A stretch of 64,000 bases of DNA from Chloroflexota bacterium (GCA_016875715.1 VGOZ01000002.1:20608-84607), one strand, 5' to 3'; counted from the first letter of the stretch, positions 11,165 through 55,893 are shown. Translations and numbers: made by a program. The notes: a model not told the origin generated them from the sequence alone.

Positions 11165-11268
11165 CTCTCCTGACGCGGATGTGGCCGCAGAATAGACGAG
11201 CCAGGGGTGCGGCGGGGCCGGACGACAACGCCGTAGGGGCGCTGCGTGCGCGCGACTACCATGCTCCC

Positions 11269-13632
11269 ATGTCCGGGCCCGATGCGCTCGCCCGCCTCTA
11301 CGCCGCAACCGCCTCGCTGGCGAGAGGTAGCACCGACGAGCGGGAGGTGCTCGGACAGATCGCCCGCTCGGCGGCGGAACTGCTGCGCGCGCCCTACGCA
11401 GCGGTCGGGATCGTCGACGATCACGGTGACCTGCGCGAGTTCGTCGTCCACGGCCTGACCGACGATGAGTACGCGCGCCTCAAGGATCACCCACCGATCG
11501 GGCGCGGCATCCTCGGCGCGCTTCTCCGCGAGGGTAGACCCCTCCGCCTCGACGATCTGACCCGCGATCCTCTCGCGGCCGGCTTCCCGATCCATCACCC
11601 GCCGATGCGCGCGTTCCTCGGCCTGCCCCTCCATCTCGACGGCCGGGTCATCGGCCGCCTCTATGCGACGCATGCGCGTGCGGGTGTCTTCGACGAGGAC
11701 GACGAACGCCTGGCGATGGGCTTCGCCGCCGCAGCCAGCGTCGCGATCGGCAACGCACGGCTCGCCACCTCGCTCCGCGCCCAGACCGACGCCGCGGTGC
11801 TGGCCTCCAGCCAGTTGTGGGCCGTGCTCGATGCCCTCGAACAGGGCGTCATCGTCACCGATCCCGCGGGCACGATCGTCGTCGTCGGCGACCGCATCGC
11901 CGGACTCGTCGGGGCCTCCTCCCCGCTCGCTGGCCAGAACGAGGAGGTGCTCGCGACGCTTCTCGCCGCGCCAGATGTCCTGCTCTCGGCGATCGCGCTC
12001 GAGCGCGCTCAGCCCCGCATCACCGATTCGGACGAACTCACTCTCCAGGCGTTTGACCGCACGCTGCGCCGCTACAGCGCGCCGGTGCTCGCGGTGGACG
12101 ACACCCTCCTCGGCCGCGTTTCGGTGTATGCCGACGTGTCGCGCGAGAGGATCATCCAGGAGCAGATTGTCTCGGTGGAACGGCTGCGCGCGACCGGCGA
12201 GATGGCCTCTGGTCTGGCCCACGATTTCAACAACGTCCTGGCGACGATCCTCGGCCGAGTCGAGCTCCTCCTCGGCCAGGTCACCGACGCCACGCTCATC
12301 GAGAACCTCGCCGCCGTCCAACGCGCGGCGCGCGACGGCGCGGCGACGGTCGCGCGGATGAGGGAGTACGGCCGCCCGCTCGATCAGGCGACATTCCAGC
12401 CGTTCGCCCTGGCCACAGTCATCGCCGAGGCGATCGAGTTCACGCGGCCGCGCTGGCGCGAGCAGGCGGTGCGCGAGGGCCGGACGATCGAAATCGAGAC
12501 CCATCTGACGCCCACGCGCCCGGCGCTGGGCGAGGCGCCCGCGTTTCGCGATGTGCTCGTCAACCTGATCTTCAACGCGGTGGATGCGATGCCCCACGGC
12601 GGCACCATCGCGATCGGCCTGGCGCCAGCCGGCGGCGGCGCGGAACTGACCATCCGCGATACGGGCATGGGGATGACGCCGGCGCTGCAGCGGCGGATCT
12701 TCGAACCGTTCTTCACCACGAAGGGGGAGCGCGGCTCGGGCCTCGGACTGGCGATGGTGCGCAAGGTGATCGCCTCGCTCGGCGGCCACATCGACGTCAC
12801 CAGCGCCCCGGGCGATGGCACGACCTTCACCATCTGGCTGCCGGCGACGGATCGTCCCGCCCCGACGACGGCGGCCCAGAGCACCGCCGATCAGCGACCC
12901 CGCCGACTCGGGCGTATCGTCCTGATCGATGATCAGACGGACGTGCGGGACACCGAGGCGATGCTCCTGCGCGCCGAAGGACACGACCTGCGCGCGTTCA
13001 GCGATCCTGCCGTAGCGCTCGGCGCGATCGATGAGGACCCGCCCGACCTCGTTATCACGGACCTGGGAATGCCTGGTTTGACGGGGTGGGACGTGGCGCG
13101 GGCGCTCCAGGCGCGCCATCCTGCCCTGCCGGTTATCTTCCTCACGGGATGGGGACGCGAGTTGACGGCGGCGCAATTGCGCGAGGGCGGGGTGAGCGGC
13201 GTCATCCCCAAGCCAATGGATCTCTCCGAGGCGCGAAGGGCGATCGACGCGGCGTTGCCGCACGGCGATCAACCGCTCCGGGTCCTCATCGCGGACGATT
13301 CGGCGGCGTTCGCTGCGGTCCTCGCCCTGCTCTTCCGCCAGGCCGGGCACCACGCTCGGACAGCCGCGACCGCGGACGCGGCGCTCGGGATTCTCGCCAC
13401 CGACCGCCACGACCTGATCGTGCTGGATGCCAATCTCCCCGCAGCGCTCGATCTCGCGCGCAAGCCGCACGCCGGCGCGCCTCTCCTCTGCGTAGCAAGC
13501 GGGAGCCCCGAGGGAGAGATGACCGATCTTGTGCCCGGAGCGGCCCTCTACGTCGAGAAAGTGCGCGTCCCGGAGCGTCTGGACGAGATCGTGCGACGGA
13601 CCCGTGAGCGCGAGGTGGCGGCACATGTCTGA
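11269..13632 (+). CDS. Hybrid sensor kinase: DosS-like GAF, PAS-like, HisKA, HATPase, REC, REC
   Basis: GRGILG...PLRLDDL..DP..AGFPIHHPPMRAFLGLP; LAHDFNNVL; NLIFNAVDAM, DTGMG, FEPFFTTK, GLGL; two receiver domains. Confidence 0.9.
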   Translation: MSGPDALARLYAATASLARGSTDEREVLGQIARSAAELLRAPYAAVGIVDDHGDLREFVVHGLTDDEYARLKDHPPIGRGILGALLREGRPLRLDDLTRDPLAAGFPIHHPPMRAFLGLPLHLDGRVIGRLYATHARAGVFDEDDERLAMGFAAAASVAIGNARLATSLRAQTDAAVLASSQLWAVLDALEQGVIVTDPAGTIVVVGDRIAGLVGASSPLAGQNEEVLATLLAAPDVLLSAIALERAQPRITDSDELTLQAFDRTLRRYSAPVLAVDDTLLGRVSVYADVSRERIIQEQIVSVERLRATGEMASGLAHDFNNVLATILGRVELLLGQVTDATLIENLAAVQRAARDGAATVARMREYGRPLDQATFQPFALATVIAEAIEFTRPRWREQAVREGRTIEIETHLTPTRPALGEAPAFRDVLVNLIFNAVDAMPHGGTIAIGLAPAGGGAELTIRDTGMGMTPALQRRIFEPFFTTKGERGSGLGLAMVRKVIASLGGHIDVTSAPGDGTTFTIWLPATDRPAPTTAAQSTADQRPRRLGRIVLIDDQTDVRDTEAMLLRAEGHDLRAFSDPAVALGAIDEDPPDLVITDLGMPGLTGWDVARALQARHPALPVIFLTGWGRELTAAQLREGGVSGVIPKPMDLSEARRAIDAALPHGDQPLRVLIADDSAAFAAVLALLFRQAGHHARTAATADAALGILATDRHDLIVLDANLPAALDLARKPHAGAPLLCVASGSPEGEMTDLVPGAALYVEKVRVPERLDEIVRRTREREVAAHV

Positions 13633-13864
13633 GATCCCTGCCGCCGACCTGCGCGCACTCCTGCACGACCTGCACAGTACTGCGGCGCAGGACGCCGCGA
13701 CCGCGCGGATCGCCCTCACGATCTGGCGCCAGGCGCGCGACCGGGGCAATGACGCGCTGGCGAAGACCGCGGCTGCGGATATCGAAGCCGCGCTCGAGAG
13801 CTTGTTCATTGCGCTGGCGCGAATCGAGGCGCGCGGCAAGGAGATCCTTCGTGACCGAGCCTGA
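13625..13864 (+). CDS. 79-aa stand-alone HisKA_3/DHp-like helical protein
   Basis: LLHDLHSTAAQDAATARIAL resembles the HisKA_3 H-box; GAGG RBS; start overlaps the kinase 3' end. Confidence 0.6.
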   Translation: MSEIPAADLRALLHDLHSTAAQDAATARIALTIWRQARDRGNDALAKTAAADIEAALESLFIALARIEARGKEILRDRA

Positions 13865-13928
13865 AGCGGCTTCGTCGGCCGCGCGTCTCGGAGCCTGAAG
13901 ACGAGGCGTACAGGGTACTCCGATCGTT

Positions 13929-13946
13929 TTAGGGGGTATACCCTGA
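13929..13946. promoter_or_regulatory. Putative NarL/LuxR-type response regulator site TTAGGGGGTATACCCTGA
   Basis: Imperfect palindrome 75 bp upstream of doxX; similar copies occur upstream of several other genes. Confidence 0.5.
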
Positions 13947-14021
13947 GGAAGAGTGGTCGGTCGATGAGGATCATCAGGGCATCGGTCGAGGCGAGATCTC
14001 TCAGGAGGAGGCAATACTCAG

Positions 14022-14621
14022 ATGGCACAGTTCTCGTCGCTTCTTCGCGGTGGCGTCCACGTCGAGGATCCGCCGATCGCGAAGTTCCTGTTCAACAGTT
14101 CGGTCGCGGCCTGGCTCTGGCTGGTGGTGCGCGTGTACTTGGGCTACCAATGGCTCGACGCAGGGCTCCACAAGGTCGGCGAGCCGGCCTGGGCGTTCGG
14201 CGGCGGTTCGGCGATCCTCGGCTACTGGCAGCGCGCGGTGGCGATCCCCGCGCCGCCGGCACGGCCGCTGATCACCTACGACTGGTTCCGCGCGTTCCTG
14301 CAGTGGCTCATCGATATCCAGGCACAGACCTGGTTCGGCGGCCTGATCGCATGGGGTGAGGTGCTCGTCGGCGTGGGCCTCATCGTGGGTGCGCTGGTCG
14401 GCATCGCGGCATTCTTTGGCGCGCTTATGAACATGAACTTCATGCTCGCCGGCACCACGAGCAGCAACCCGGTTCTGTTCCTCCTCGCGGTCGGCCTGAT
14501 GCTTGCCTGGAAGAACGCGGGTCTCATCGGCCTGGACCGGCTCCTGCTCCCGATGCTGGGCACGCCGTGGCCTTCCCAGGAGCAGGCCGCCGCGCTGAGG
14601 TCGGCGACCATCCACGCCTAA
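14022..14621 (+). CDS. DoxX/DoxD family membrane protein (TQO large subunit-like)
   Basis: VRVYLGYQWLDAGLHK, LIAWGEVLVGVGL, MNMNFMLAGTTSSNP, GLIGLDR; AGGAGG RBS. Confidence 0.88.
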   Translation: MAQFSSLLRGGVHVEDPPIAKFLFNSSVAAWLWLVVRVYLGYQWLDAGLHKVGEPAWAFGGGSAILGYWQRAVAIPAPPARPLITYDWFRAFLQWLIDIQAQTWFGGLIAWGEVLVGVGLIVGALVGIAAFFGALMNMNFMLAGTTSSNPVLFLLAVGLMLAWKNAGLIGLDRLLLPMLGTPWPSQEQAAALRSATIHA

Positions 14622-14643
14622 CCGTTCCGCGCTCGCCTCGAAT

Positions 14644-14678
14644 GGCCGGGGTCCCCATCGGGGACCCCGGCCTCTTGC
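14644..14678 (+). terminator. Intrinsic terminator-like hairpin
   Basis: Perfect 13-bp stem GGCCGGGGTCCCC/GGGGACCCCGGCC then TCTTG, 22 bp after the doxX stop. Confidence 0.7.
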
Positions 14679-14920
14679 TCTGGAATCGGCAGCTCTCGGT
14701 CTCCGGCTGGAGTCACCGAACGCGAACGCGATAGCCAGTCCGCCCAACCGCCCGGAGCGGGCGCCAGGATCGGACGCACGGCGAGGGACCCACCCGGCGC
14801 CGTTCGGGGACCCCGCTGGCCGACGCACCGCTCGTGGTGCCGAAGTGTCGACCTTCGCCCGCCGCAGTGGGAGGGATGGAGCGACGCGGAGGTGAGGGCC
14901 GCCCTCAGCCGCCGGCGGAC

Positions 14921-14936
14921 TCGGGTTTTCCCCTGA
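14921..14936. promoter_or_regulatory. Putative response regulator site TCGGGTTTTCCCCTGA upstream of nirK
   Basis: Imperfect palindrome about 100 bp upstream of the start. Confidence 0.5.
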
Positions 14937-15038
14937 TGGCGCGTCCCCTGAATTCCCGTACCGTCCTCGACACGATCCACAGACAGATGTGAGGTCGCAG
15001 GCGTCCCAGGACGCACACGAGGAGGTGGAGTTCTCACA

Positions 15039-16535
15039 ATGGCAACGATCACCCGTCCCCCGGTCGAGCCCGGCGCGCCCTCCGGTGGACCCGGTAAGCG
15101 AGGCGGCATCTCCGTCGGTCCGCTGCTCGCATTTGTCGGTGTCATCGCGATCCTGCTCATGGCCGCGATGGTGGCGATGAACTACATGCTCCTCAGCGGC
15201 CGGGGCGCAGCCGGGCAGGTCGCCGTGGCCGCGCCGACCACGAAGGTGGGTCCGTCGGCCATCTCAGTCGTTGCTACTGAGTTCAAGTTCACGCCTGCTG
15301 AAGTGACGATCCCCGGGCCGGGCGATCTGACGGCCACGATCGACAACAAGGGTCTCATCGAGCACGACCTGGTGATCGAGGGGATCGATGGGCGCGTGCT
15401 CGCGGCCGGTGGCGCGAAAGCCAGTGGAGTCTTCAAGCTCGCGAAGAACGGCGTCTACAACTTCATCTGCACGATCCCTGGCCACAAGGAGGCCGGTATG
15501 GTGGGTCGGCTGGTTGTGGGCACGCCGGAGCAGACCGCCGCCAAGCCAGATCAGATCGCCTATGGCCCTGGACCGGCCGCAGTGGTCCAGCCCCCCGTGA
15601 GCCTGAAGCCCGCGGACGCCGCCGCGAAGCCGCTGCCGCTCCCTCAGGTCGCAGCGCCAGTCAACCGCACCGCTCCTGCGAACGTGAACGTCACAATCGA
15701 GACGCAGGAGATCACCGCGAAACTGGCCGATGGCGTCACCTACACGCTCTGGACCTTCGGGGGCACGGTGCCGGGTCCGATGGTCCGCGTGCGCCAGGGC
15801 GATACCGTCACCATGACCCTGAAGAACAACGCCTCCAGCAAGGTGACCCACTCGATCGACTTCCACTCGGCGACCGGTCCCGGTGGCGGGGCAAAGGTGA
15901 CCCAGGTGCCGCCGGGTCAGGAGGCAACGTTCTCGTTCAAGGCTCTCAACCCCGGCGTCTACGTCTACCACTGTGCCACGCCGATGGTCGCGCATCACAT
16001 CGCGAATGGGATGTACGGCCTGATGATCGTCGAGCCGCCCGGCGGCTATCCAAAGGTCGATCGCGAGTTCTACGTGATGCAGGGTGAGTTCTACCTCGCC
16101 GGAAAGCGGGGCCAGGAGGGGCACCACGAGTTCTCGATGGAGAAGATGCTCAATGAGGAGCCGGACTACGCGCTGTTCAACGGCAGCGTCGGTGCGTTGA
16201 CCAACGGTGCGATGAAGGCGCGCGTCGGCGAGACCGTGCGTATCTTCTTCGGCGTCGGCGGGCCGAACCTCACGTCCAGTTTTCACGTCATCGGCGAGAT
16301 CTTCGATCGGGTCTATCCCGAGGGTGCGAGCGAGTTCATGACCAACGTACAGACGACGCTCGTGCCGACCGGAGGCAGCGCGGTCGTCGATTTCAAACTG
16401 GAGGTGCCCGGCAACTACGTGCTCGTCGACCACAGTCTTGGCCGCCTGGAAAAGGGTCTGGCCGGCATCCTGGAGGTCGAGGGGCCGGCGAATCCGGAGG
16501 TCTTCAACCCGATCAACCCCTTGCCGAAGCCCTGA
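15039..16535 (+). CDS. nirK: Copper-containing nitrite reductase with N-terminal membrane anchor and extra cupredoxin domain
   Basis: [43 protein letters not shown]; extra type-1 site EHDL...[11 protein letters not shown]. Confidence 0.95.
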
Positions 16536-16652
16536 GCCGATAAGGGCGACGACAGGGAGGTCCGTCCGGGCCTCGCGCCTATCCGGGCAAAACCCGGATG
16601 CCTGGTGGGCCCCAGCATCGTGCAATCCCGTGGAGAGGGGGGCTTGTCGCAA

Positions 16653-17027
16653 ATGATGCGCCTTGCGGCGATGGTCGTACTCGTCGCACTGCTCGCGGCC
16701 TGCGCTTCGGCGATGCCGCCATCGGCTGCCACGGCGATCCCCGACCTGACGATCACGATCCCGCCCGGCGCGGCGCTCGCCGAGATGTCCGGCGCGGTCA
16801 GCGTCGCCATGCCTTCCACGCTCCGCGTCGTCGTCGGCCAGCGCATCCTGGTGCGGAACGACGACCAGGCGATGCACTATTTCCTGGAGCGGCCGATCGC
16901 ACCCGGCGATACGCTCGTCCAGACGTTCGCCAGCGCGGGCACGTTTCGCTTCGCCGGAATGCGCAGTTGCTCCGTAGGGCAGATCTCAAGCCTGACCGTC
17001 GAGGTCCTTCCCGGAGGTGTCGCGTGA
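16653..17027 (+). CDS. Lipoprotein with degenerate cupredoxin-like fold
   Basis: Lipobox LAAC; LVRNDDQAMH, IAPGDT..TF..AGTF, single late Cys. Confidence 0.6.
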   Translation: MMRLAAMVVLVALLAACASAMPPSAATAIPDLTITIPPGAALAEMSGAVSVAMPSTLRVVVGQRILVRNDDQAMHYFLERPIAPGDTLVQTFASAGTFRFAGMRSCSVGQISSLTVEVLPGGVA

Positions 17028-18100
17028 GGACGCCGACCCTGCGCGTGCCCGACACAGCTTTCGAGTCCGACAGTCGTGCCCCGGGCCGCGCCACGAGGGT
17101 GGGGCGATGGATCGTTGCCGCCCTCGCCGCTCTGGCCGGAGCGGCGGCATTGGGCGGGCTGGCCGTCTTGCTCCAATGGGGGCCGTTCGCGCCGCCCGCG
17201 CCGTGGAATGGGGGTGCGATCGACCCGGCCCACGATGTAGGCGCTCTGACTCTCCTGCGCGCCGATGGCGTTCCTTTTCGGGAGACCGACCTGATCGGCC
17301 GGACGACGCTGTTCTTCTTCGGCTACACCCGCTGCCCGGATGTCTGTCCGCTGGCACTGGCGCACGCCGCGCAGGTGGTGCGCGCGATGGGCGCGGATGG
17401 TGTGGGGCTGGACGTGTACTTTGTGACCGTCGATCCGGAGCGCGATACACCAGACCACCTGCGTGCCTATACCGCCAACTTCGGGCCTCGGGTCGTCGGA
17501 CTCACGGGCACTGCCAGCCAGTTGGCCGCGGCCTACCGCGCCTTCGGCGTCGTGTCGGCAAGACGCCCGATCGAAGGACGTGCGGATGACTACTCGGTGG
17601 ATCACAGCACGTACGTCTACCTTCTCGATGCGACGGCGCGCGTTCGCCTGATCTACGGATTCGATCAGAATCCCGCCGGATTGGCGGAGGACGCGCGCCG
17701 GCTGATGCGCGAGCAGGTCGTCCGCGTGACGGGTGGGTGGACGCGAGCGGTCGCCCCGGGGATGACCGCCGGTGGCTTTCTCTTGATAGAAAACCGCGGC
17801 GCGGCCGATCGCCTCATCGGAGCGCGTTCCGACGTCGCGGACCGGGTGGAGATTCACCGTACGACGATCGAGAACGGGATGGCGCGGATGGAAAAGGTGT
17901 CCGTACTGCCATTGCCGTTCGGTTCCACCCGCCTCGAGCCGGGCGGCCTGCACCTGATGCTCGTGGATGTGCGCCGTGCGCTGGCCGCCGACGAACGGAT
18001 CGCGGTGACGCTCACTTTCGAGAACGCGGGAGAACTGCCGGCGGTGCTCGTCGTGCTGCCAGCGGGCGCCGCGATGCCGCCGGCGGGGACGGGGCGATGA
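17024..18100 (+). CDS. SCO family protein fused to PCuAC copper chaperone
   Basis: FFGYTRCPDVCP, VTVDPERDT, VDHS; then ADRLIGA.SDVA..VEIH-x10-M...EPGGLHLML; GTGA overlap with upstream gene. Confidence 0.88.
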   Translation: MRTPTLRVPDTAFESDSRAPGRATRVGRWIVAALAALAGAAALGGLAVLLQWGPFAPPAPWNGGAIDPAHDVGALTLLRADGVPFRETDLIGRTTLFFFGYTRCPDVCPLALAHAAQVVRAMGADGVGLDVYFVTVDPERDTPDHLRAYTANFGPRVVGLTGTASQLAAAYRAFGVVSARRPIEGRADDYSVDHSTYVYLLDATARVRLIYGFDQNPAGLAEDARRLMREQVVRVTGGWTRAVAPGMTAGGFLLIENRGAADRLIGARSDVADRVEIHRTTIENGMARMEKVSVLPLPFGSTRLEPGGLHLMLVDVRRALAADERIAVTLTFENAGELPAVLVVLPAGAAMPPAGTGR

Positions 18101-18245
18101 GGGTTCCCACACTCCTCCGGGCGCCGGTGTCCCCCGAGCGCCGCCATCCGGGTAAAGCCCCGACGCCGCGCGCCAGGTGCCTCGCGATGATGCGACCGAC
18201 AGGAGTTGCGCGCCGCGAGCGCTCGATCCCAACGGAGGTGCGAAG

Positions 18246-19166
18246 GTGATCCAGGATAGCCGGCACACCATCATCGTCCCGCTCGACGGATCAGACCTGG
18301 CTGAGCACGCATTGGGCGCAGCGCTGCGTCTGGCCCCTCCCATGCGTGCGGCGCTGCTACTGCTCCGCGTCGTGCCCGAGTTTCCGCCCGACGAGCGCGT
18401 GCGTCAGGCAGCATCGGTCGAGGCCGGCGACGCCTACCTCGCGCCGCTCGCTGAGCGGGTCCACGAGTTAGGGCTGCCCGTGCAGATCGTCACCTGCGCG
18501 GGAAACGCGTGGGAGAAGATCGTCGAGAACGCGATCGCCTGGCACGCCTCCCTCATCGTGATGGGAACGCACGGTCGGGGCGCGGTCGACCGCCTGCTCC
18601 ACGGTTCGGTCGCTGATGCGGTCGTGCGTCACTCCGCGATCCCCGTGCTGCTGGTGCCGGCGCGCGCGGAGCATCACGCCACACTGGACGGCGATTGCGT
18701 GCTCGTGACCGTGGATGGGTCGGCATTCGCCGAACGCGCCCTGAGCGTTGGGGCTGAGATCGCGCGGGAACTGACCGCGCCGCTCTTCATCCTGCGGGCG
18801 TCGTTCTGGGATCCAACGCCGACCAACGGCCTGGCTCCCTCGATGAGCGCGATCGATCTGATGGAGCAGGAATCGAAAGAGTACGTCGAACGGCTCGTCG
18901 ACGAAGTGCGCCGCGCGGGTATCGATGCCCGCGGCCGCTCGATCTTCTCACCGGCGGCCCGCGCGATCGTCGAGATGGCCGAGGAAGCAAACGCGGCGCT
19001 CATCGTGATGGCGACGCACGGCCGCAGTGGTCTCAGTCGCCTGACGATGGGCTCGATCGCCACCGAGGTCGTCACCCACGCGCGCCGCCCGGTACTGCTC
19101 GTGCGGGCGCAGGCCGCCGTCAACCCGATGCCCATCGTCGCCGGTCCCGCCGTGTCAATTCGGTAG
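18246..19166 (+). CDS. Universal stress protein (tandem USP domains)
   Basis: IIVPLDGS...LIVMGTHGRG...GSVADAV; second domain LIVMATHGRSG...GSIATEV. Confidence 0.93.
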   Translation: MIQDSRHTIIVPLDGSDLAEHALGAALRLAPPMRAALLLLRVVPEFPPDERVRQAASVEAGDAYLAPLAERVHELGLPVQIVTCAGNAWEKIVENAIAWHASLIVMGTHGRGAVDRLLHGSVADAVVRHSAIPVLLVPARAEHHATLDGDCVLVTVDGSAFAERALSVGAEIARELTAPLFILRASFWDPTPTNGLAPSMSAIDLMEQESKEYVERLVDEVRRAGIDARGRSIFSPAARAIVEMAEEANAALIVMATHGRSGLSRLTMGSIATEVVTHARRPVLLVRAQAAVNPMPIVAGPAVSIR

Positions 19167-19172
19167 TCGGGG

Positions 19173-19817
19173 ATGACACGCGTCTTCCTCTGTGACGACC
19201 ACGTTCTTCTGCGTGCCGGGCTCCGGGCGCTGCTCGCATCGGAGCCCGGCCTGGAGATCGTGGGCGAGGCCGGCGATGGTGAATCGGCGCTCGAACAGAT
19301 CGCTGTCCTGCGGCCGGATGTGGCACTGATCGACATCACCATGCCGGGCATCGATGGGCTCGAGACCACGAGGAGGCTCTCGGCCCGGGCGCCGGATGTC
19401 CGCACGCTCATCCTCACCATGCACGATGACCCGGAGTATCTGTACCAGGCACTCGACGCCGGTGCAGCCGGTTACGTGATGAAGAAGGCCGCCGAGCGCG
19501 ACCTCATTGAGGCGATCCATAGAGTGCAGACCGACGGCACATTCCTCGCTCCGGCCGTGCATAGAAAGCTCGCCGCCGACTACATCGCGCGGCGCGACCG
19601 AGGCGAACTGGTTGGCCCGGTCGAGCACTTGACCCCGCGGGAGGAGGAGGTCCTTCGTCTCCTCGCCCAGGGGTACACAAACATGGAGATCGGCGAGACC
19701 CTTGTGATCAGCGTCAAGACCGTGGAGACGCACCGAGCCCATATCCTGGACAAGCTTGGCCTGCGAAAGCGGGCGGAGCTTGTGCGCTACGCCAGGACGC
19801 ACGGCCTGCTTGCCTGA
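19173..19817 (+). CDS. NarL/NreC family response regulator (REC + LuxR HTH)
   Basis: LCDDH, IDITMP, LTMH, YVMK; LTPREEEVL...ISVKTVETHRAHILDKL. Confidence 0.95.
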   Translation: MTRVFLCDDHVLLRAGLRALLASEPGLEIVGEAGDGESALEQIAVLRPDVALIDITMPGIDGLETTRRLSARAPDVRTLILTMHDDPEYLYQALDAGAAGYVMKKAAERDLIEAIHRVQTDGTFLAPAVHRKLAADYIARRDRGELVGPVEHLTPREEEVLRLLAQGYTNMEIGETLVISVKTVETHRAHILDKLGLRKRAELVRYARTHGLLA

Positions 19818-20995
19818 TGAAGGCTCGGCTCACCGCCACCCGCGACCTGTCCTCAGCGGCGCCGGTGACAGCAATGTCCTGGGCCGACCGCGCCGCCGCG
19901 CTCCTTCGCGTGCCGCTGGCGCTGAAGCTGATTGTTGCCAACGGCGCGCTCTTGCTCACCGTCGCCGGCACCGTCGCCTACGTCGATCGGATGGCTTTCG
20001 GCGCCGCGGTATCCGTGACCGCGGTTCCCGGCATCGCGGTGGTCGCCCTCTTCGGCATGATCGCGGCCACAGGCGTGAACGCGCTGCTCGTGCGCTGGGC
20101 GCTTGCTCCCCTTCGCGAACTGGAGCGTGTGGCCACTGCGGTCGAAAACGGCGACCTGCTTGTGCGCGCCCGGCTCGGTCCGATTCGCGATCGGCAGACA
20201 GAGCGCATCGGGGCGCTGGCAAACCGAATCCTCGATGCCCACGATCAGCACCGCCACCAGATAGAAGCCGCCGCCGCCCAACTCTCCCGGCTGAGCGCCC
20301 GGGAGATGGAAACTCGAGAGGTCGAGCGCGGCGAAGTGGCTATCGAACTGCGTGAGGAGATCGGGCAGGTTCTCACCGCCATCACTGTCGCGTTGCAGGC
20401 GCTCGTCAACGAGATCGACGCCGGCGGCCCGCTCGAATCTGCCCAGATTCGCGATCGGGTCGCCGAACTCATCGTCCTGGCCCGTGATTCGCACGAGAGG
20501 TGCCTGCGGCGCGCTCAGGGGCTCCGCCCGAGTGTGCTGGATGACCTGGGTCTCGTGCCGGCGCTCCGTTCCGCCATCGCACGCTTCGGTGCGACGCACG
20601 GCCTGGACATCGTCTTCACCGTGAGCGATCCACCGCCTCGCCCGCCACGTCACGTGGGCACCGCCCTCTATCGTGTTGTGGAGGAGGCAATCGCCAACAC
20701 GGTGCGCCACGCCGGCGCGACACACATCGACGTGGACCTCGTCGTCGATGACGGCGCTCTCCGCGTCGCGATCGTCGACGATGGGCAGGGGTTCGATGCA
20801 ACGCGATCCCTCGACCCGCGGATGCTGGGAATCGCCGCGATGCGTCAGCGGGTTAAGGCGCTGGGTGGGGAACTCGCTCTCTGGAGCGAGGTGGGCGAGG
20901 GGACCCGCGTTGAGGCAAGCGTACCCGAGGGCGCCTGGATGGGCGACGCTCCCACGCCGCATCACATTTCAGGTGATTCCCCGATCCGTGGGTAG
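19817..20995 (+). CDS. Membrane HAMP-HisKA_3-HATPase kinase-like protein lacking the phosphoacceptor His
   Basis: Two TM helices, HAMP, H-box reads ELREEIGQ (normally ELHDEIGQ), LRPSVLDDLGL, EEAIANTVRH, DDGQGF. Confidence 0.85.
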   Translation: MKARLTATRDLSSAAPVTAMSWADRAAALLRVPLALKLIVANGALLLTVAGTVAYVDRMAFGAAVSVTAVPGIAVVALFGMIAATGVNALLVRWALAPLRELERVATAVENGDLLVRARLGPIRDRQTERIGALANRILDAHDQHRHQIEAAAAQLSRLSAREMETREVERGEVAIELREEIGQVLTAITVALQALVNEIDAGGPLESAQIRDRVAELIVLARDSHERCLRRAQGLRPSVLDDLGLVPALRSAIARFGATHGLDIVFTVSDPPPRPPRHVGTALYRVVEEAIANTVRHAGATHIDVDLVVDDGALRVAIVDDGQGFDATRSLDPRMLGIAAMRQRVKALGGELALWSEVGEGTRVEASVPEGAWMGDAPTPHHISGDSPIRG

Positions 20996-21292: not shown

Positions 21293-22225
21293 TCACATCA
21301 GTTCGCGGACGAGTCCCTGCGCGAGTTCGGGTGAGATGCCCAGGGAGCGTCGGGCGAGTGCGCCACCCGAAGCCAGGACCGGCTCGAGCTGATCCAGACT
21401 GGGCAAATCATCGCGCTTCCAGAACAGGCCGATAGGGATCTCATCGCCCCAGATGTACGCCTGTTCCATCGCGGCCTGGAAATCCGACGGATCGTGGCCG
21501 CGATCCTCCAGCTTGTAGGTGCGCTGCTTGAAGAAGTCGTGGGTGTTGTCTCGGTTGAATGTGACGCACGGACTGAAACAGTCGATGAGGGCGAACCCCT
21601 TGTGGGTGATTCCGCCCTTGATGAGCTCGACCAGGTGGCGGATCTGACCCGTATAGCCGCGGGCAACGTAGGTCGCTCCGGCGGCAATCGCGACCGGGAT
21701 CGGGTTGATCGGGTTCTCGACGCTCCCCTGCGGCGTGCTCTTGGTCTTCATACCCTTGATGCTGGTGGGGGAGACCTGCCCCGTCGTGAGGCCGTAGATC
21801 TGGTTATCCATCACGATGTAGGTGAGGTCGACATTACGGCGGATCGAGTGCATGAAGTGGTTGCCACCAATGCCGTAGCCGTCACCGTCGCCGCCGGTCG
21901 CGATCACCTTCAGTTCGTGATTCGCTAGGGCGACCCCGCTCGCCACAGCAAGCGCGCGGCCGTGCAGCGTATGCATACCGTAGGTATTGATATAGCCCGG
22001 GAGGTTCGAGGAGCAGCCGATGCCGCTGACCGTGACCACCTCGTGCGGATAGAGCTCCAGCTCCACGATCGCCTGCTTCAGCGCGTTGAGGACGCCGAAA
22101 TCCCCACATCCCGGGCACCAATCGGGCTCGGCCTTCCCCTTCAGATCACGCACGGTGAGATGGGGTCGGGCCGAACGCTCCTGCGGCGAGTCCGCCGGAT
22201 GGGCGCTGGGTACGACGACACTCAT
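21293..22225 (-). CDS. 2-oxoacid:ferredoxin oxidoreductase beta subunit
   Basis: WCPGCGDFG, SGIGCS, HTLHGR, GGDGDG..IG, DNQIYGLTTGQ, SPCVTFN. Confidence 0.95.
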   Translation of the reverse strand: MSVVVPSAHPADSPQERSARPHLTVRDLKGKAEPDWCPGCGDFGVLNALKQAIVELELYPHEVVTVSGIGCSSNLPGYINTYGMHTLHGRALAVASGVALANHELKVIATGGDGDGYGIGGNHFMHSIRRNVDLTYIVMDNQIYGLTTGQVSPTSIKGMKTKSTPQGSVENPINPIPVAIAAGATYVARGYTGQIRHLVELIKGGITHKGFALIDCFSPCVTFNRDNTHDFFKQRTYKLEDRGHDPSDFQAAMEQAYIWGDEIPIGLFWKRDDLPSLDQLEPVLASGGALARRSLGISPELAQGLVRELM

Positions 22226-22236
22226 GGACTCTTCCT

Positions 22237-24030
22237 CTAGACTAGGATCTCGTGGGTCGGGACGTAGCGCAGCGTCCCCACCAGGACCTTCTTCACGCCC
22301 TCCACGATGTGGTGGGGCATGAAGGGCTCGCCATCGTATTTGCGGATGTGGCCGTCGGCGACGAGGCCCGTCTCCGAACGCAGGTAGCGCGCGAACTGGC
22401 CGCTGTAGTTGTTCTCGACCATGATCGTGCGCCGGGCCCGACCGAAGATGGCCGCGATCGCGTCGCCGTGGAGCGGCACGATCCACTGCACCTGAAGGTT
22501 GTTCGCCGTGATCCCCTCGGCGGCAAGGTGCTCGATCGCCTCCCGAATCACGCCGCGAGTGGAACCCCACCCGACGAGCGTAACCTGGGCATCCGCAGGC
22601 CCGAATAGTTCGGGCGGGTCGAGGCGCGCGAGCACGCCGTCCATCTTCCGCATCCGCTTCTCGTGCATTGCCTGCCGCTTGAGCGGGTTCGTGAACTCGT
22701 CGGAGATGAGCACGCCATCCTCGTCGTGCTCGTCGGTCGCGACCACGTGGACGTATCCCTCGGTACCCGGGAAGGCTCGAGGGGAGATGCCGCTCGGGGT
22801 GATCTCGTAACGGTTGTAATGGCCGTTGTGCTGATCCGCGGCCGCGCCGTTCGAACTGATCACCTCGCCGCGATCGATCGCGACGTTGAAATCGAGCGCA
22901 GCCGGGTCGATCGAGAAGCGCCCCTCGGAAAGGAGCAGATCGGAGAGGATGATGCCGGGGCACTGGAACCGATCGACAAGATTGAACAGCTTGGGCACGA
23001 CCGAGAAGCATTCCTCGATCGAGGTCGGCGCGACGATGATGCGTGGGTAGTCGCCCTGCCCGGCGCCGAGCGCTTGCCACAGGTCGCCCTGCTCGGTCTT
23101 GGTGGGAACGCCTGTCGCCGGACCGGCGCGCTGAACGTCGATACAGACGACCGGAATCTCCATCATCGCCGCCGCGCCGAGAGCCTCGGTCATCAACGCG
23201 AAGCCACCGCCGGATGTAGCGCACATCGCGCGCACGCCTGTATGCGCCGCGCCGATCGCCATGTTGATGACGCCCAGTTCGTCCTCGACCTGGCGAACCA
23301 TGATCCCCAACTGGCGGCCATGCGACGCCATCCAGTGAAGGACGCCGGTGGATGGGCTCATCGGGTAGGCGCAGTAGAACCGCACCCCCGCGGCCGCACC
23401 GCCCATTGCCAGCGCGGTGTTGCCATCAATGAACGCGAGCGGCTTGCCCGTGTCTGGCAGGGGGAAAGGGAACGGCGTGTAATGCGCCGCCGCATGGGAG
23501 TACCCAGCCCACGCCACGCCCACGTTCTCCTTCACTACGGCCTCGCCCTTGGACCGGAACTGGCGCGTGAGGATTTCTTCGAGGATCGAGAACTCCACGC
23601 CCATCAGCTGCAGACCCGCGGCCAGCGCGATCGTGTTCTGCACCAGATCGCCCTTCACGTTCGGGGCGAGCCCCTTGACCGAGAAGGGGCATAACTGCGC
23701 CCCAGGACTCGCCGTGCCCGGCTTGATTCGATCGCCGTTGAACAGGATGGCCGACCCGGCGCCCATCAGCTTCAGGTGCCGATCCATCGTGTCCTGGTTC
23801 AGGCAGATCAGCAGGTCGAGCCGATCGCCGTGGCTGAGGACCGGCGCATCACTCGTCCTGAGCGTGAGGAAGATGTGCCCGCCGCGAATGATCGATTGGT
23901 AGGCGTCGTATACGTTGACGTGCAACCCACGACGCACAAGGATGCGTGCGAGGATATTGCCCGGAGTGGCGATTCCCTGGCCCGCGGCACCACCAATCGC
24001 GATTGCGAGATCGACCTTACCCACCGACAC
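22237..24030 (-). CDS. 2-oxoacid:acceptor oxidoreductase alpha subunit (gamma-alpha fusion)
   Basis: IGGAAGQG, YPMSP, QVEDE, ATSGGGFALM, QRAGPATGVPTK, ENNYSGQ. Confidence 0.95.
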   Translation of the reverse strand: MSVGKVDLAIAIGGAAGQGIATPGNILARILVRRGLHVNVYDAYQSIIRGGHIFLTLRTSDAPVLSHGDRLDLLICLNQDTMDRHLKLMGAGSAILFNGDRIKPGTASPGAQLCPFSVKGLAPNVKGDLVQNTIALAAGLQLMGVEFSILEEILTRQFRSKGEAVVKENVGVAWAGYSHAAAHYTPFPFPLPDTGKPLAFIDGNTALAMGGAAAGVRFYCAYPMSPSTGVLHWMASHGRQLGIMVRQVEDELGVINMAIGAAHTGVRAMCATSGGGFALMTEALGAAAMMEIPVVCIDVQRAGPATGVPTKTEQGDLWQALGAGQGDYPRIIVAPTSIEECFSVVPKLFNLVDRFQCPGIILSDLLLSEGRFSIDPAALDFNVAIDRGEVISSNGAAADQHNGHYNRYEITPSGISPRAFPGTEGYVHVVATDEHDEDGVLISDEFTNPLKRQAMHEKRMRKMDGVLARLDPPELFGPADAQVTLVGWGSTRGVIREAIEHLAAEGITANNLQVQWIVPLHGDAIAAIFGRARRTIMVENNYSGQFARYLRSETGLVADGHIRKYDGEPFMPHHIVEGVKKVLVGTLRYVPTHEILV

Positions 24031-38788: not shown

Positions 38789-41065
38789 CTACGGGCGCAG
38801 CCCCGCGACCGCCGCGCGCGCGTCGGCCGGCCCGTTCTCCGCGAACCCCCGGATCAACGCGACCAGACGCCAGCGATCCTCCTCGGCGATCTGCTCGCGG
38901 AACGCGGGCATCGCAAAGCCGGCGATTCCTTCGGTGATCCAGCCGTACAGCTGGCGCTGCGGGTGATCCATGGCGTGCGCCGACAGGTCCGCGGGAGGCG
39001 GCTGGAGGAACCGTCCGGCCGGACCGTCGCCACGCCCGGTCAGGCCGTGGCACTGCGCGCAACTCTGTTGATACAGGATCCGCGCCCGCTCCCATCCCGC
39101 GGCATCCATGGCGACCGGATTCTCCCCGCGTGTCGCGATGCGGATCTGCTCGCTCGCCTCGCTCGCACCCAGGTAGCCACCACCCACGATCGAGACCATG
39201 GCGATGCCCAGGACGATGGGCATCGCCCGGCGGCGTCCGCGCGCGATCCGGCCGCGGCCGGCCAGTAGCACCACGCCGAACAGCAGCAACTGCCCGGCCA
39301 CGATCGCCGAAGTCGTAATGCGGGGCGCAAACGCGGTCTCGCGCGTGCGGGCGGCCAGCGCATCGAGGATCGTCACCTCGATACGAGCCCGCGCGTCCTC
39401 CATTCCTGTGCGGCGGACCAGCGGCTCGATCCTCCAACGCCCCACCGTCGCGAACTGATTCCCTTCGTGCGCGAACAGATCGGGCCCCTCGCGCTGCAGC
39501 GTGATCTCCGTCTCCCCCATGTCCCGATGATCGAGGTGCTGGATGCGGAGAACTGCCTTTTCGACACCGGTGAGATCCCCGGCGACGTGTAGGGTCGTCC
39601 GATTCCGTCCCGCCTCGCCGGGCGCGATCTCCAGTCGCATCGTCAGTCCGCCCGCCGCAACCTGCCCGGCCACCGACCGAAACGCCACCACGGCCTCGCG
39701 GGCGGGCTGCAGGCCGGTCAAGAGACCGGTCAATCCCAGCACCGCAATCGCGGCGACCAGTTCGACCGCTCCGGTCCAGCGAAAGCGCCTCTCAACTCGC
39801 CGGACGGCCGCGGCCGCGATCTGCCCGCTCAGGCGCGCCAGGCCGAGCAACCGCGGCGCAACCAGCCGCCAGTGGAGGATGCCGAAAAGCGCGACGACTC
39901 CCGACAGGGCGAGTTTCAGGAGCAGTGCGCGGCCGTACGGGGTCCGCTCCAGCGCCTCGATCGACCCCACGGTGATGAGCGACTGGATGATGCCGGTCGC
40001 GGCGACGATGCCCACGACCCACACCATCCGCCCGAACCGGGTGACGACCCCCGCTACGATCTGCGACGCCATCACCGTGCCGGATCGCCGCACCGCGCGC
40101 ACCATCAGGAGCAGGGTTACCAGTCCGCCGAACCACGCGCCCGCTGCTGCCAGATGCAGGAGATCGAGTGCGATCCGCACGGCCGGCCACACGAGGGCCG
40201 CCGCCCCGTGCGACCCGAGCGCGATGGTGACGAGGATCGCGCCAGCCATCGCCAGCGCGATCACACGGCTGCCGCTCTCGTGGCGGCTCGTCGCCAGGAT
40301 CAGCGCGATCGTCACACCCAGCGCGCTGCGGATGAGCAGCAGGTATCCGGCGCGGGTGCCCACCAGAGCCTGAGCGAGCGGATCGCCGATTGCCTGTATG
40401 GGCGTCACTTCCGCGGCGGCAGCGGCCTGCGCCAGCGCCATCGCGGTCGTGCCCCCAAGGACCAGGATCGACCCGAGCACGCCGATCCATCCCAGCGCGC
40501 TGTCCCGCGCCTCGTCGATCGCGCGATCGACCTCCGTACGGCCGCGGCCCCACCGACCGAGCACGAGCGGACCGAACAGCAGCACGCCGAACAGGCCCAG
40601 CGCACCGGCGAAGAGCGCCCCCTTCCCGGCGACGGCCAACGTCGTCGGCTCGTACGCCTGTTGCGCGCCGCGCGCGAGCAGCGCGGCCTCCGGTCCCGCC
40701 ACACCCACGGAGAAAGGGATCGTCCCCCGCGTCGTGTGGCCGTCAACTGCCGAGGTGACCCGCCAGGCCAGAACGTAGGTGCCTTCCGGCACGGTCAAGC
40801 CGTCTGCGACGAGGGCGCGTGTATCCCCCGGAACGAGTCGCGGGCTCAGTCGATCGACAGTCGCTCCACGCGCGTCGAGCAGACGCAGATCGGTCAGGCG
40901 CAGTTCGACCGCCTCGGTGTACCAGAGGTAGATCCGCTCCGGCATCGCCGCGATCGTTGAGCCTGCTTCGGGTGCCGACCTTTCGAGTTCGGCGTGCGCG
41001 CGCGCGAGTGCGGGAAGAACGGCGAAGAGAACCAGCGCCGCCAGGACTGCGATCGCACGCACCAC
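38789..41065 (-). CDS. CopC-CopD (YcnJ-like) copper uptake protein with Ig-like domain and C-terminal cytochrome c
   Basis: Signal peptide then HAELERSAP, SAVDGH; GSHGAA, DLLHLAAAGAWFGG, YGRALLLKL; CAQCHG...MPAF. Confidence 0.88.
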   Translation of the reverse strand: MVRAIAVLAALVLFAVLPALARAHAELERSAPEAGSTIAAMPERIYLWYTEAVELRLTDLRLLDARGATVDRLSPRLVPGDTRALVADGLTVPEGTYVLAWRVTSAVDGHTTRGTIPFSVGVAGPEAALLARGAQQAYEPTTLAVAGKGALFAGALGLFGVLLFGPLVLGRWGRGRTEVDRAIDEARDSALGWIGVLGSILVLGGTTAMALAQAAAAAEVTPIQAIGDPLAQALVGTRAGYLLLIRSALGVTIALILATSRHESGSRVIALAMAGAILVTIALGSHGAAALVWPAVRIALDLLHLAAAGAWFGGLVTLLLMVRAVRRSGTVMASQIVAGVVTRFGRMVWVVGIVAATGIIQSLITVGSIEALERTPYGRALLLKLALSGVVALFGILHWRLVAPRLLGLARLSGQIAAAAVRRVERRFRWTGAVELVAAIAVLGLTGLLTGLQPAREAVVAFRSVAGQVAAGGLTMRLEIAPGEAGRNRTTLHVAGDLTGVEKAVLRIQHLDHRDMGETEITLQREGPDLFAHEGNQFATVGRWRIEPLVRRTGMEDARARIEVTILDALAARTRETAFAPRITTSAIVAGQLLLFGVVLLAGRGRIARGRRRAMPIVLGIAMVSIVGGGYLGASEASEQIRIATRGENPVAMDAAGWERARILYQQSCAQCHGLTGRGDGPAGRFLQPPPADLSAHAMDHPQRQLYGWITEGIAGFAMPAFREQIAEEDRWRLVALIRGFAENGPADARAAVAGLRP

Positions 41066-51421: not shown

Positions 51422-51976
51422 GTGATCGAGCACGCTGCTCACCCGTCCCTCCCGCCGTACGTAGCGCCGGCGGCGACGCGCGTGGGTCATGTTCACCTGA
51501 AGGTCGCTGACATCCCCCGTGCCCTCGGGTTTTATCGAGACCTGCTCGGTTTCGAGGTCCAGTTCGATCTCGGCCACGCGGCGTTCCTCTCTGCCGGAGG
51601 ATATCACCACCACATCGGCCTGAATACGTGGGAGAGCCGGGGCGGCGAACCGCCACCACCGGGAGCGACCGGTCTCTACCACGTGGCGTTCGCCTATCCG
51701 ACCCGCCGCGACCTCGCCGTGGTCGTCCGTCGCCTCATGGATGCGGGATACCCGCTGGACGGTGGCTCCGACCACACCACCCACGAGGCGATCTACCTGC
51801 GCGATCCCGATGGCAATGGCGTCGAACTCGCCTGGGACCGGCCGGAGAGCGCCTGGCGGCCGTTCTGGGAGCAGTTCCGGGATGATCCGCGCGGTTTGGC
51901 CCGCCTGAACCGCCAGCTCGATTTTGGCAGCCTGATGGCGGAGATCGATCGTCCAATGGAGGCAGATACCACATGA
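51422..51976 (+). CDS. VOC family protein (CatE-like glyoxalase/dioxygenase domain)
   Basis: GHVHLKV, FLSAGGYHHHIGLNTW, GLYHVA, DH..HEAIYLRDPDGNGVEL. Confidence 0.9.
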   Translation: MIEHAAHPSLPPYVAPAATRVGHVHLKVADIPRALGFYRDLLGFEVQFDLGHAAFLSAGGYHHHIGLNTWESRGGEPPPPGATGLYHVAFAYPTRRDLAVVVRRLMDAGYPLDGGSDHTTHEAIYLRDPDGNGVELAWDRPESAWRPFWEQFRDDPRGLARLNRQLDFGSLMAEIDRPMEADTT

Positions 51977-52365
51977 TCAGGGACCGTCGGCTCTGGGCAG
52001 GCCAGATCTTTCTGGCAATCGCCTTCCTCGTCAATGGCGGCGGCAAGGTCGCGATCCCAGCCGCGGAACTGGCAGCGATGGGTCCAGCGAATCTGTGGGT
52101 TGCGGACGCTTCTCCCGAGATTGTCATTGTGGTGGGACTGCTCGAACTGCTCGGCGCAATCGGCGTCATCCTGCCGTGGGCCACCGGGGTCCGCCGGGAG
52201 CTCACCTTCTGGGCGGCGGCGGGTCTCGCGCTGACGATGCTCGGCGCGGCCGGTCTTCATGTCGTGCGCGGCGAAATGTTCCTCATGCCCGTCAACGCTG
52301 CGATCGGCGTCATCGCGCTCCTCGTCGCGCTCGGGCGCAGGAGCAGGACCGCCCCCACCGACTGA
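51973..52365 (+). CDS. DoxX family (DoxX_2-like) membrane protein
   Basis: QIFLA.AF...G.GK, GLLELLGAIGVILP, GLALTM.GA..LH; ATGA overlap. Confidence 0.85.
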   Translation: MIRDRRLWAGQIFLAIAFLVNGGGKVAIPAAELAAMGPANLWVADASPEIVIVVGLLELLGAIGVILPWATGVRRELTFWAAAGLALTMLGAAGLHVVRGEMFLMPVNAAIGVIALLVALGRRSRTAPTD

Positions 52366-53486: not shown

Positions 53487-53534
53487 CGCCTTCCCTCCCC
53501 ACCCGCCCGACAATTGGCGATGGAGGGCTGTCAC

Positions 53535-55383: not shown

Positions 55384-55893
55384 TCAGGCGGTCGCGCGTA
55401 CCAGCAGAATCGGAATCGTCGCGTGGCGCACCACGTAGTCGGTCACGCTGCCCAGCAGCAGTCGGCCCAGTCCGCCGCGCCCGTGGGTCGTCATCAGGAT
55501 GAGATCGGCCTCCCAGGACGCGGCCTCGGCGACGATCTTCTCCCCGGCGGAGCCATCCAAACGTCGCCAGCTGCAGTGGACGCCCTCCTTCCGCAGTCGA
55601 TCCGCCGTCTGGGTAGGGTAGAGGTCCGCCTCATCTTTCTGCGCCGCCACGTACGGCGCCGGATCGAGCACCGGTCCGTGACCGGGCATCGTGCTGGCCG
55701 CGCTCGCCGCGAGTAGGCTGGCCGGCGGCGCGTAGGCCCGCACGAGCTCGACGCGAGAGTCGAACGCTTTCGCGAGCGTGCGGACGTGGGGAAGAATTTG
55801 CTCGGCAAGCGCCGACCCGTCCAGCGGAACGATGATGCGCGCGTAGGGTTGGCTGCCGAGTGTGCGGAAATCCCTCTGTGCCATCTGGGGCAC
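55384..55893 (-). CDS. Universal stress protein (single domain)
   Basis: IIVPLDGSALAE, LILMTTHGRGGLGRLLLGSVTD. Confidence 0.9.
   Translation of the reverse strand: MPQMAQRDFRTLGSQPYARIIVPLDGSALAEQILPHVRTLAKAFDSRVELVRAYAPPASLLAASAASTMPGHGPVLDPAPYVAAQKDEADLYPTQTADRLRKEGVHCSWRRLDGSAGEKIVAEAASWEADLILMTTHGRGGLGRLLLGSVTDYVVRHATIPILLVRATA

Follow-up and report, generated by a model that had tools for sequence, protein, structure and literature searches.

The stretch of DNA analysed here (64 kb of high-GC DNA, about 68%; VGOZ01000002.1:20608-84607, hereafter the window) comes from a 3.4-Mb metagenome-assembled genome of the Chloroflexota (G000). Between positions 11269 and 20995 its plus strand carries eight genes, which encode a hybrid sensor kinase, a 79-residue protein, a DoxX-like protein, the copper nitrite reductase NirK, a SCO1/PCuAC fusion, a tandem universal stress protein (USP), a NarL-type response regulator and a second kinase (Table 1). 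An earlier reading of the window, made from sequence alone (the sequence-only reading), had joined these genes into a Dos-like phosphorelay. The present analysis concerns primarily the 79-residue protein (hereafter the mini-protein). We propose a multi-step phosphorelay assembled from two kinase classes, in which the mini-protein, as a free-standing HisKA_3-type dimerisation and histidine phosphotransfer (DHp) domain, would link the HisKA hybrid kinase to the NarL-type regulator; judged from sequence comparison, the chances of this proposal stand about even. New here are the recognition of the mini-protein gene as a real conserved gene, the likeness of its product to HisKA_3 DHp domains and the linkage of the gene with those of the hybrid kinase and of NarL-type regulators. 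In a full-text search, most subscription journals lying outside its scope, no published account was found of either a stand-alone HisKA_3-type DHp phosphotransferase or this kinase architecture.

Table 1. Features of the locus, with positions counted from the first nucleotide of the window
Feature	Position	Strand	Basis and remarks
Hybrid sensor kinase, 787 residues	11269..13632	+	Pfam GAF, HisKA, HATPase_c and two Response_reg stretches; PDB phmmer
GAF domain, residues 23-166	11335..11766	+	Alignment to DosT GAF-A
Codon of His318, predicted autophosphorylation site in LAHDFNN	12220..12222	+	H-box reads LAHDFNNVL; invariant in 18/18 family members
REC1, residues about 550-659	12916..13245	+	Pfam Response_reg; DD554/555, acceptor Asp598, Thr of FLTGWG and Lys of PKP kept
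REC2, short receiver, residues about 672-787	13282..13629	+	DD676/677, Asp720, Ser of SGS and Lys of YVEK kept
Mini-protein, 79 residues	13625..13864	+	Proposed free-standing HisKA_3-type DHp; helices 6-39 and 43-78 predicted; His17 codon 13673-13675
DoxX-like membrane protein	14022..14621	+	Next gene after the mini-protein gene; Pfam DoxX weak, E 0.0077
Perfect 13-bp inverted repeat, 3-nt loop	14644..14672	+	23 nt after the DoxX stop; not conserved in G002
NirK, copper nitrite reductase with extra N-terminal cupredoxin domain	15039..16535	+	TIGR02376 348.7 bits (cut-off 296.3); Pfam
SCO1/SenC-PCuAC copper-chaperone fusion	16598..18100	+	Pfam; start uncertain
Tandem universal stress protein	18177..19166	+	Pfam Usp, two stretches, E 4.4e-53
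NarL/LuxR-type response regulator	19173..19817	+	Pfam; intact receiver with DD8/9, Asp54, Thr82 and Lys104
HisKA_3-type membrane kinase lacking the acceptor His	19817..20995	+	HAMP, degenerate DHp, intact HATPase_c

The mini-protein family and its loci

The ATG of the mini-protein gene overlaps the stop of the kinase gene (TGA, 13630-13632) by 8 nt, and GAGGTGG is found 6 nt to its 5' side. The encoded protein contains the stretch LLHDLHSTAAQDA and ends after 79 residues, in agreement with the sequence-only reading, which had described a 79-residue frame overlapping the kinase end and devoid of a catalytic domain. Orthologues were identified in a genome of the same genus (G001, 82% identity) and in one of another genus of the same family (G002, 49%), both directly after the orthologous hybrid kinase gene with start-stop overlaps (ATG..TGA, 8 nt; GTGA). 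Over the 74 codons compared between G000 and G001, the ratio of nonsynonymous to synonymous substitution rates (dN/dS) is 0.18. When a profile built from the three orthologues was searched against 1.84 billion representative proteins, 23 matches were retrieved at E<=1e-3. Of these, 21 are proteins of 79-150 residues that cover nearly all of the profile and two are long repeat proteins; no long fused relative was found in this library at that threshold. Conservation of the mini-protein had been set as a test beforehand, and the orthologues, the small relatives and the dN/dS value together answer it: the frame is a real conserved gene under purifying selection and more than a chance open reading frame (ORF).

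His17, Gln22 and Trp34 are invariant in the 23-row family alignment, the consensus of which reads RLH(D)GPxQxAAxxRVALAVW..A..GD. The residue after His17 is D/E in 13 of the 23 members and Ser in the window copy. The sequence-only reading had noticed an HDLH..AQD box; the box is present and includes the invariant His17 and Gln22, but its 'HD' part is not conserved, His14 being replaced by Arg in both orthologues, and the candidate acceptor is therefore His17. AlphaFold2 predicts a two-helix hairpin with a predicted local distance difference test (pLDDT) value of 93.6.

HisKA_3 is the sole Pfam family that recurs among the members: eight of the 23 match it (best E 4.2e-4), whereas no other family is matched by more than two. 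The family alignment was compared using hhalign with a reference set of 32 aligned, bona fide HisKA_3 DHp domains taken from G000 and 12 relatives, giving a probability of 87.2% and an E-value of 3.9e-6 over 49 columns; His17 is thereby paired with the phospho-His of HDxxxQ and Gln22 with its Gln. Against the score of 35.1 obtained here, the reversed alignment reached 12.4, and 100 column shuffles averaged 9.8 (standard deviation 2.2, maximum 17.4). When the family profile was run over 401 Chloroflexota genomes, strong matches were confined to G000, G001 and G002, and 14 of the 15 weak matches were H-boxes of large HisKA_3 kinases, many of them reading LHDGPxQ as in the mini-protein family; the HDGPxQ variant is thus common to this family and the local Chloroflexota kinases. 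Among the feature neighbours in the ESM Atlas, 16 of 30 carry HisKA_3, which is a lead only. By these profile comparisons, the mini-protein family is homologous, at profile level, to bona fide HisKA_3 DHp domains. Origin from a DosS-type DHp domain in particular was considered and found unsupported: the hhalign score is 18.5 (probability 3.8%) against 35.1 for the Chloroflexota HisKA_3 set, and nothing in this comparison clearly marks the family as the remnant of a DosS-like kinase.

With the DHp domains of NarX, DesK and LiaS-type HisKA_3 kinases (PF07730), the mini-protein shares a predicted helical hairpin, a His with Gln at +5 and the profile similarity; it differs in standing alone, in its sub-threshold Pfam scores, in the absence of the LRPxxLDDLGL second-helix motif and, in the window copy, in the Ser after the His. 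No HATPase_c domain is present in the same protein, the relatives being only 79-150 residues long. A histidine phosphotransferase (HPt) is a monomeric four-helix bundle of about 120 residues with an HxxKG-type site. Only two helices are predicted for the mini-protein, and none of the 23 members matches PF01627 (HPt) or PF10090. A protein of the ChpT/Spo0B type is likewise not indicated, since the DHp-like hairpin has neither a second domain nor a PF10090 match.

The surroundings of the gene could be read at ten loci, namely the window, G001, G002 and seven metagenome contigs retrieved with nine closer family sequences as the query. The C-terminus of a hybrid kinase lies directly upstream in nine of them (the window, G001, G002, L059, L060, L061, L062, L063 and L064). 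On the contigs, the upstream kinase was recognised by Pfam receiver or ATPase matches (L061, L063, L064), by the conserved ...PGADLYVEK...PE(R/Q)L tail (L059, E 5e-13; L060) or, in L062, as a short kinase end only. In L060, L061 and L062 a NarL-type regulator gene is convergent with and adjacent to the mini-protein gene, with no kinase gene in between; the full-length regulators of L060 and L062 are 53% and 51% identical to that of the window, and the G002 regulator is 79% identical. Beyond the regulator, L060 has a 232-residue ORF without a Pfam match, and L061 and L062 run off the contig. Genes of the nirK type lie on both sides of the kinase-mini pair in L063 and after the pair in G002. The order in L063 is Rrf2 regulator, pyruvate:ferredoxin oxidoreductase (PFOR), nirK-like gene, GAF hybrid kinase, mini-protein gene and second nirK-like gene, with CopZ and CopA further downstream. 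G002 retains the whole cluster order of the window with an extra two-component pair inserted, an OmpR-type regulator and its kinase between the mini-protein and DoxX genes (L021, 8456-10264).

The mini-protein might, alternatively, be a hairpin regulator that transfers no phosphoryl group and binds a receiver or a DHp domain as phosphatase, inhibitor or adaptor, thereby tuning the hybrid kinase or the NarL-type regulator. In such a role it would be comparable in size and shape to Spo0E-type phosphatases or Sda-type kinase inhibitors. The size and fold of the hairpin speak for this reading, as does the tight gene coupling to the kinase, which might be expected of a stoichiometric partner. The invariant Gln22 also coincides with the phosphatase Gln of HisKA_3 domains, and a phosphatase role of the DxxxQ motif is known from work on NarX. 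However, it is the His that is invariant throughout the family and the Asp position of DxxxQ that varies, a pattern more in keeping with transfer than with a role purely as a DxxxQ phosphatase. The likeness is, moreover, to a phospho-accepting domain, His on His, and in L060-L062 no kinase gene separates the mini-protein gene from the convergent regulator gene. A non-transferring role is thus regarded as unlikely, with some weight left to it.

Other candidates for relatives were few. A word-index search with the single mini-protein recovered only itself. A scan of genome contigs gave, beyond the two kin, only a chance match to a Sel1 repeat (L025), and a weak match in G013 was discarded because the frame concerned is a shadow frame of an aldehyde oxidoreductase-like gene. 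One more match, 25 residues long (SAASVRIGLAVWRQAVAEPD...), was seen within a 394-residue open frame (L077; G323:C1:3353202-3353276, minus strand); it corresponds to the latter half of the family's helix 1 and could be either chance or a fused relative.

The two kinases and the regulator

The hybrid kinase consists, in order, of a DosT-like GAF domain, a PAS-like linker, HisKA (HDFNN), HATPase_c and the two receivers REC1 and REC2; an alternative upstream ATG at 11179 is also open. Its top NCBIfam matches, VirA-like, AtoS and CckA, are all under the cut-off. The closest solved relative of the GAF domain is the GAF-A domain of DosT (chain 2vzw, E 4.9e-33), followed by chains of DevS (about 1e-27 to 1e-28; PDB phmmer). 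The motif GFPIHHPPMRAFLGLP is present. His110 (codon 11596-11598) aligns with DosT His147 as the candidate proximal heme ligand, and Tyr132 (codon 11662-11664) with DosT Tyr169 as the candidate distal Tyr; the GRG(I/V)LGAL stretch is retained, with Val at the position of DosT Tyr98. The roles of the heme-contacting residues of DosT, including proximal His147 and distal Tyr169, are given in an excerpt of PMC4082495.

About 18 clusters of the protein library share the GAF-(PAS)-HisKA-HATPase-REC architecture, with 50-64% identity in the GAF domain, and all 18 aligned kinases keep the heme His and Tyr, the HDFNN box and the acceptor sets of both receivers. The domain thus has, by alignment, the proximal His and distal Tyr of the GAF-A domains of DosS and DosT, and the hybrid kinase is accordingly predicted to respond to O2, NO or CO by means of a heme-binding GAF domain. 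The next GAF relatives are actinobacterial GAF-GAF-HisKA_3 kinases, some of them called DosT by their sources. Within the 401-genome sample, no other hybrid kinase exceeds 44% identity to that of the window, and the four that were inspected have neither the HPPM motif nor a mini-protein gene downstream. The beta-4 strand of REC1 reads (F/L)LTGWG and resembles the FATGUY motif, a resemblance only, which PMC9981736 associates with relay-intermediate receivers. The anatomy given in the sequence-only reading (GAF motif, HDFNN-type core, two receivers) was recovered in full by Pfam, the H-box and alignment.

PMC4082495 describes DosS and DosT as kinases of GAF-GAF-HisKA_3-HATPase architecture from which DosR is phosphorylated directly. 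The window kinase, in contrast, has a single GAF domain on a HisKA hybrid with two receivers; a HisKA_3 element is encoded apart from it, as the mini-protein, and the host belongs to the Chloroflexota. The regulator is of the NarL family, with VraR, NarL and DevR among its PDB matches (DevR, E 4.7e-36), and USP genes lie nearby; by these matches it is a generic NarL/VraR/DevR-like protein and not specifically DosR-like. The GAF domain suggests an extension of DosS/DosT-type heme gas sensing to the Chloroflexota.

In the second kinase, Arg179 (codon 20351-20353) replaces the phospho-His and Glu180 the following Asp, so that the H-box reads AIELREEIGQ against ARELHD[EQ]TxQ in its homologues; the Arg is what the sequence-only reading had seen at this position. 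Both orthologues (G001, 78% identity; G002, 50%) read ELREEIGQ, while the His is kept in all 22 other best homologues (22 genomes, at most 37% identity, RELHD(E/Q)TxQ; one unpublished genome was left out of the count). The match to PF07730 reaches 18.4 bits only. The N, G1, G2 and G3 boxes of the ATP lid are intact (EEAIAN, DDGQGFD, LGIAAMRQR and GEGT, aligned to canonical homologues), and the protein thus has the ATP-lid motifs of a competent HisKA_3 kinase and lacks its phospho-acceptor His. On this comparison the change from His to Arg is fixed and the kinase is under constraint. Since the Gln of the phosphatase-type ExxxQ motif is kept, a phosphatase or modulator role is favoured, and the protein is most likely a signal-controlled phosphatase or modulator of the NarL-type regulator rather than its phosphodonor.

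DivL of Caulobacter, a HisKA-type protein with Tyr at the acceptor site, likewise has a kinase fold with the acceptor His replaced, in a system with a CckA-like hybrid kinase. An excerpt of PMC12471899 describes DivL as a pseudokinase modulating CckA. The window protein differs from it in being HisKA_3-type and membrane-bound, in its Arg at the site, in the predicted co-transcription with a NarL-type regulator and in the retained phosphatase-motif Gln. A kinase with a fixed His-to-Arg change and intact ATP motifs offers a natural test case for the function of kinases lacking the His.

The constraint on the N, G1, G2 and G3 motifs (G001, 78%; G002, 50%), together with the restriction of the His-less kinase to the three genomes with the mini-protein gene, would also suit a split kinase, in which the mini-protein receives a phosphoryl group, in trans from the intact catalytic domain of the His-less kinase or directly from that of the hybrid kinase, and then passes it to the NarL-type regulator, the receivers of the hybrid kinase serving as sinks or outputs. 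The mycobacterial HK1/HK2 pair and CheA3/CheA4 are reportedly split kinases. The mini-protein gene is, however, coupled to the hybrid kinase gene and lies 6 kb from that of the His-less kinase; no kinase gene stands between it and the regulator gene in L060-L062, and both receivers keep their acceptor residues in 18 of 18 hybrid kinases. We consider a split kinase quite unlikely.

The regulator gene is 5.3 kb from the mini-protein gene in the window, and G000 encodes four canonical HisKA_3 kinases and, on another contig, one Hpt domain over the cut-off. Two independent systems may accordingly be imagined, with the hybrid kinase acting through an ordinary Hpt or a REC2 output, the NarL-type regulator fed by another HisKA_3 kinase and the mini-protein in an unrelated role. 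Against this stand the adjacency of the mini-protein gene to orthologous NarL-type regulator genes in three independent metagenome loci, the cluster order kept in G002 and the similarity of the mini-protein profile to HisKA_3 DHp domains, and such independence appears very improbable. The absence of an Hpt domain from the genome was rejected as an argument for the relay, one being present, and the PF10090 matches in the genome are merely the ATPase part of hybrid kinases.

The proposed phosphorelay

The relay that we prefer is a prediction from comparison as regards heme binding, every transfer of the phosphoryl group, the dimer, the function of the His-less kinase and the regulon. It would begin with heme-GAF sensing of O2, NO or CO by the cytoplasmic hybrid kinase, which would control HisKA autophosphorylation. 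His318 would be phosphorylated and pass the phosphoryl group to the kinase's own receiver or receivers, to Asp598 of REC1 and possibly Asp720 of REC2. The mini-protein, translationally coupled to the kinase and a HisKA_3-derived bare DHp hairpin, would most likely dimerise to a four-helix bundle, and its His17 would accept the phosphoryl group and hand it on to the NarL-type regulator. NarL-type regulators normally pair with HisKA_3 kinases. The His-less membrane kinase would supply regulated dephosphorylation of the regulator. Going by synteny, nirK, the copper chaperones and the USP genes are the likely targets. A predicted complex of two mini-proteins with the receiver of the NarL-type regulator (residues 1-122) obtained a score of 0.01 and a mark of 0.32, values which, computed without controls, speak neither for nor against binding.

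CckA-ChpT-CtrA and Spo0F-Spo0B-Spo0A have a similar layout, in which a hybrid or upstream kinase and a receiver are joined to a terminal regulator by a dimeric His carrier of the DHp type. The kinase of the window shares the HDFNN type of H-box with CckA and scores on CckA models, below the cut-off. Spo0B keeps a catalytic-domain-like second domain. The same is stated for ChpT in a part of PMC3433190. In contrast to both, the mini-protein is a bare 79-residue hairpin, HisKA_3-like and not of the HisKA/HPTransfase kind, and the terminal regulator is NarL-type. Relay phosphotransferases are either HPt proteins or pseudo-histidine kinases according to excerpts of PMC9981736 and PMC12471899. We put forward, tentatively and with the balance somewhat against it, that the family represents a third structural class of His phosphotransferase, a HisKA_3-derived dimeric hairpin of about 80 residues adapting a HisKA hybrid kinase to a NarL-type regulator, the regulator's own kinase having lost the His in this lineage and become a dedicated phosphatase or modulator.

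Comparative genomics supports the relay in part, and several observations weigh against it. The window mini-protein has no Pfam match even at E 10 and thus stays under the gathering threshold, and its family lacks the second-helix motif of HisKA_3 noted above. Structural comparison by VIA-align returned generic helical hairpins only, the DesK DHp domain ranking 19 (Z 8.8) in a tie with unrelated folds; Foldseek found no match in the PDB at E<=0.001, and the family profile matched no kinase in a PDB sequence search at E<=10. The intact ATP lid of the His-less kinase fits an ATP-using role better than that of a pure phosphatase, and the Hpt domain of G000 could be the real relay partner of the hybrid kinase. 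At the tenth locus (L065), the mini-protein gene (1584-1877) lies between an upstream short-chain dehydrogenase gene and a cupin-like gene with no kinase nearby, and the family is therefore not always kinase-linked; no NarL-type regulator occurs in the 18.7 kb of L063 that were covered. As to the co-occurrence of the components, named as a check in the sequence-only reading, the kinase-mini linkage, the adjacent regulators of three loci and the nirK genes of G002 and L063 speak for it, and L065 and L063 depart from it in the respects named. In the 401 sampled genomes, the mini-protein gene and the heme-GAF hybrid kinase are found in G000, G001 and G002 only, and the His-less kinase, examined among 41 relatives, is found in the same three genomes alone; because these three are kin, their three-way co-occurrence counts as one evolutionary event.

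If the proposed relay is true, the smallest unit sufficient for a His-Asp-His-Asp relay would be seen in a bare DHp hairpin that serves as its middle His carrier, signalling would be seen to cross between the HisKA and the HisKA_3/NarL specificity classes, and very small ORFs that follow hybrid kinase genes would merit annotation. Under the more tentative reading as a third structural class, the phosphodonor and phosphatase functions of one DHp domain would be split over two proteins, one answering to cytoplasmic heme gas sensing and the other to a membrane signal. Heme gas sensing would also be tied to a copper nitrite reductase, and because this enzyme makes NO, the arrangement suggests a feedback control of denitrification in lake-water bacteria. 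Thirteen lake-water DNA runs contain the window stretch, with no RNA run among those listed.

Neighbouring genes and regulatory sequences

The neighbouring genes named in the sequence-only reading (nirK, the copper chaperones, the USP and the NarL-type regulator) were identified as such by Pfam and, for nirK, by TIGR02376 at 348.7 bits. The DoxX homologue of L059, where the order mini-protein gene to DoxX is as in the window, scores 23.9 bits with Pfam. NirK of the window, 498 residues long, carries an N-terminal membrane anchor and the extra cupredoxin domain, and the same fused form is encoded in G002 and twice in L063. The SCO1/SenC-PCuAC fusion occupies a single 500-residue frame with no domain in its first 217 residues. 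An ORF screen gave a rival 140-residue ORF (16605-17027) with good codon bias in another frame that overlaps its N-terminus, and because of this overlap the true start is uncertain and an extra small gene may be present.

The perfect inverted repeat after the DoxX gene is probably the terminator of the kinase-mini-DoxX unit. Two candidate operators were discarded. A GGGTATACCC palindrome at 13932, considered as a DosR box, has no significant copies. The three exact GGGGWCCCC sites of the 64-kb window all lie in the DoxX-nirK spacer (14644-14816); 9 of 100 shuffles reach three sites, two of the copies form the perfect 13-bp hairpin and the G002 cluster has none, and the sites are not claimed as operators. 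No conserved operator was thus found in the cluster when the palindrome and GGGGWCCCC were compared between the window and G002.

Elsewhere in the window, 2-oxoacid:ferredoxin oxidoreductase genes (21293-24030, minus strand) directly follow the His-less kinase gene, and the PFOR gene beside the kinase-mini pair of L063 (2245-5985) makes such genes a recurring neighbour. A CopC-CopD-cytochrome c fusion of 758 residues (38789-41065, minus strand) is a further copper-handling gene. A second USP-rich patch has two USP genes, one tandem (53514-54638) and one single (55384-55893, minus strand), followed by another NarL/LuxR-type regulator gene (56313-56882), with a DoxX_2 gene at 51973-52365.

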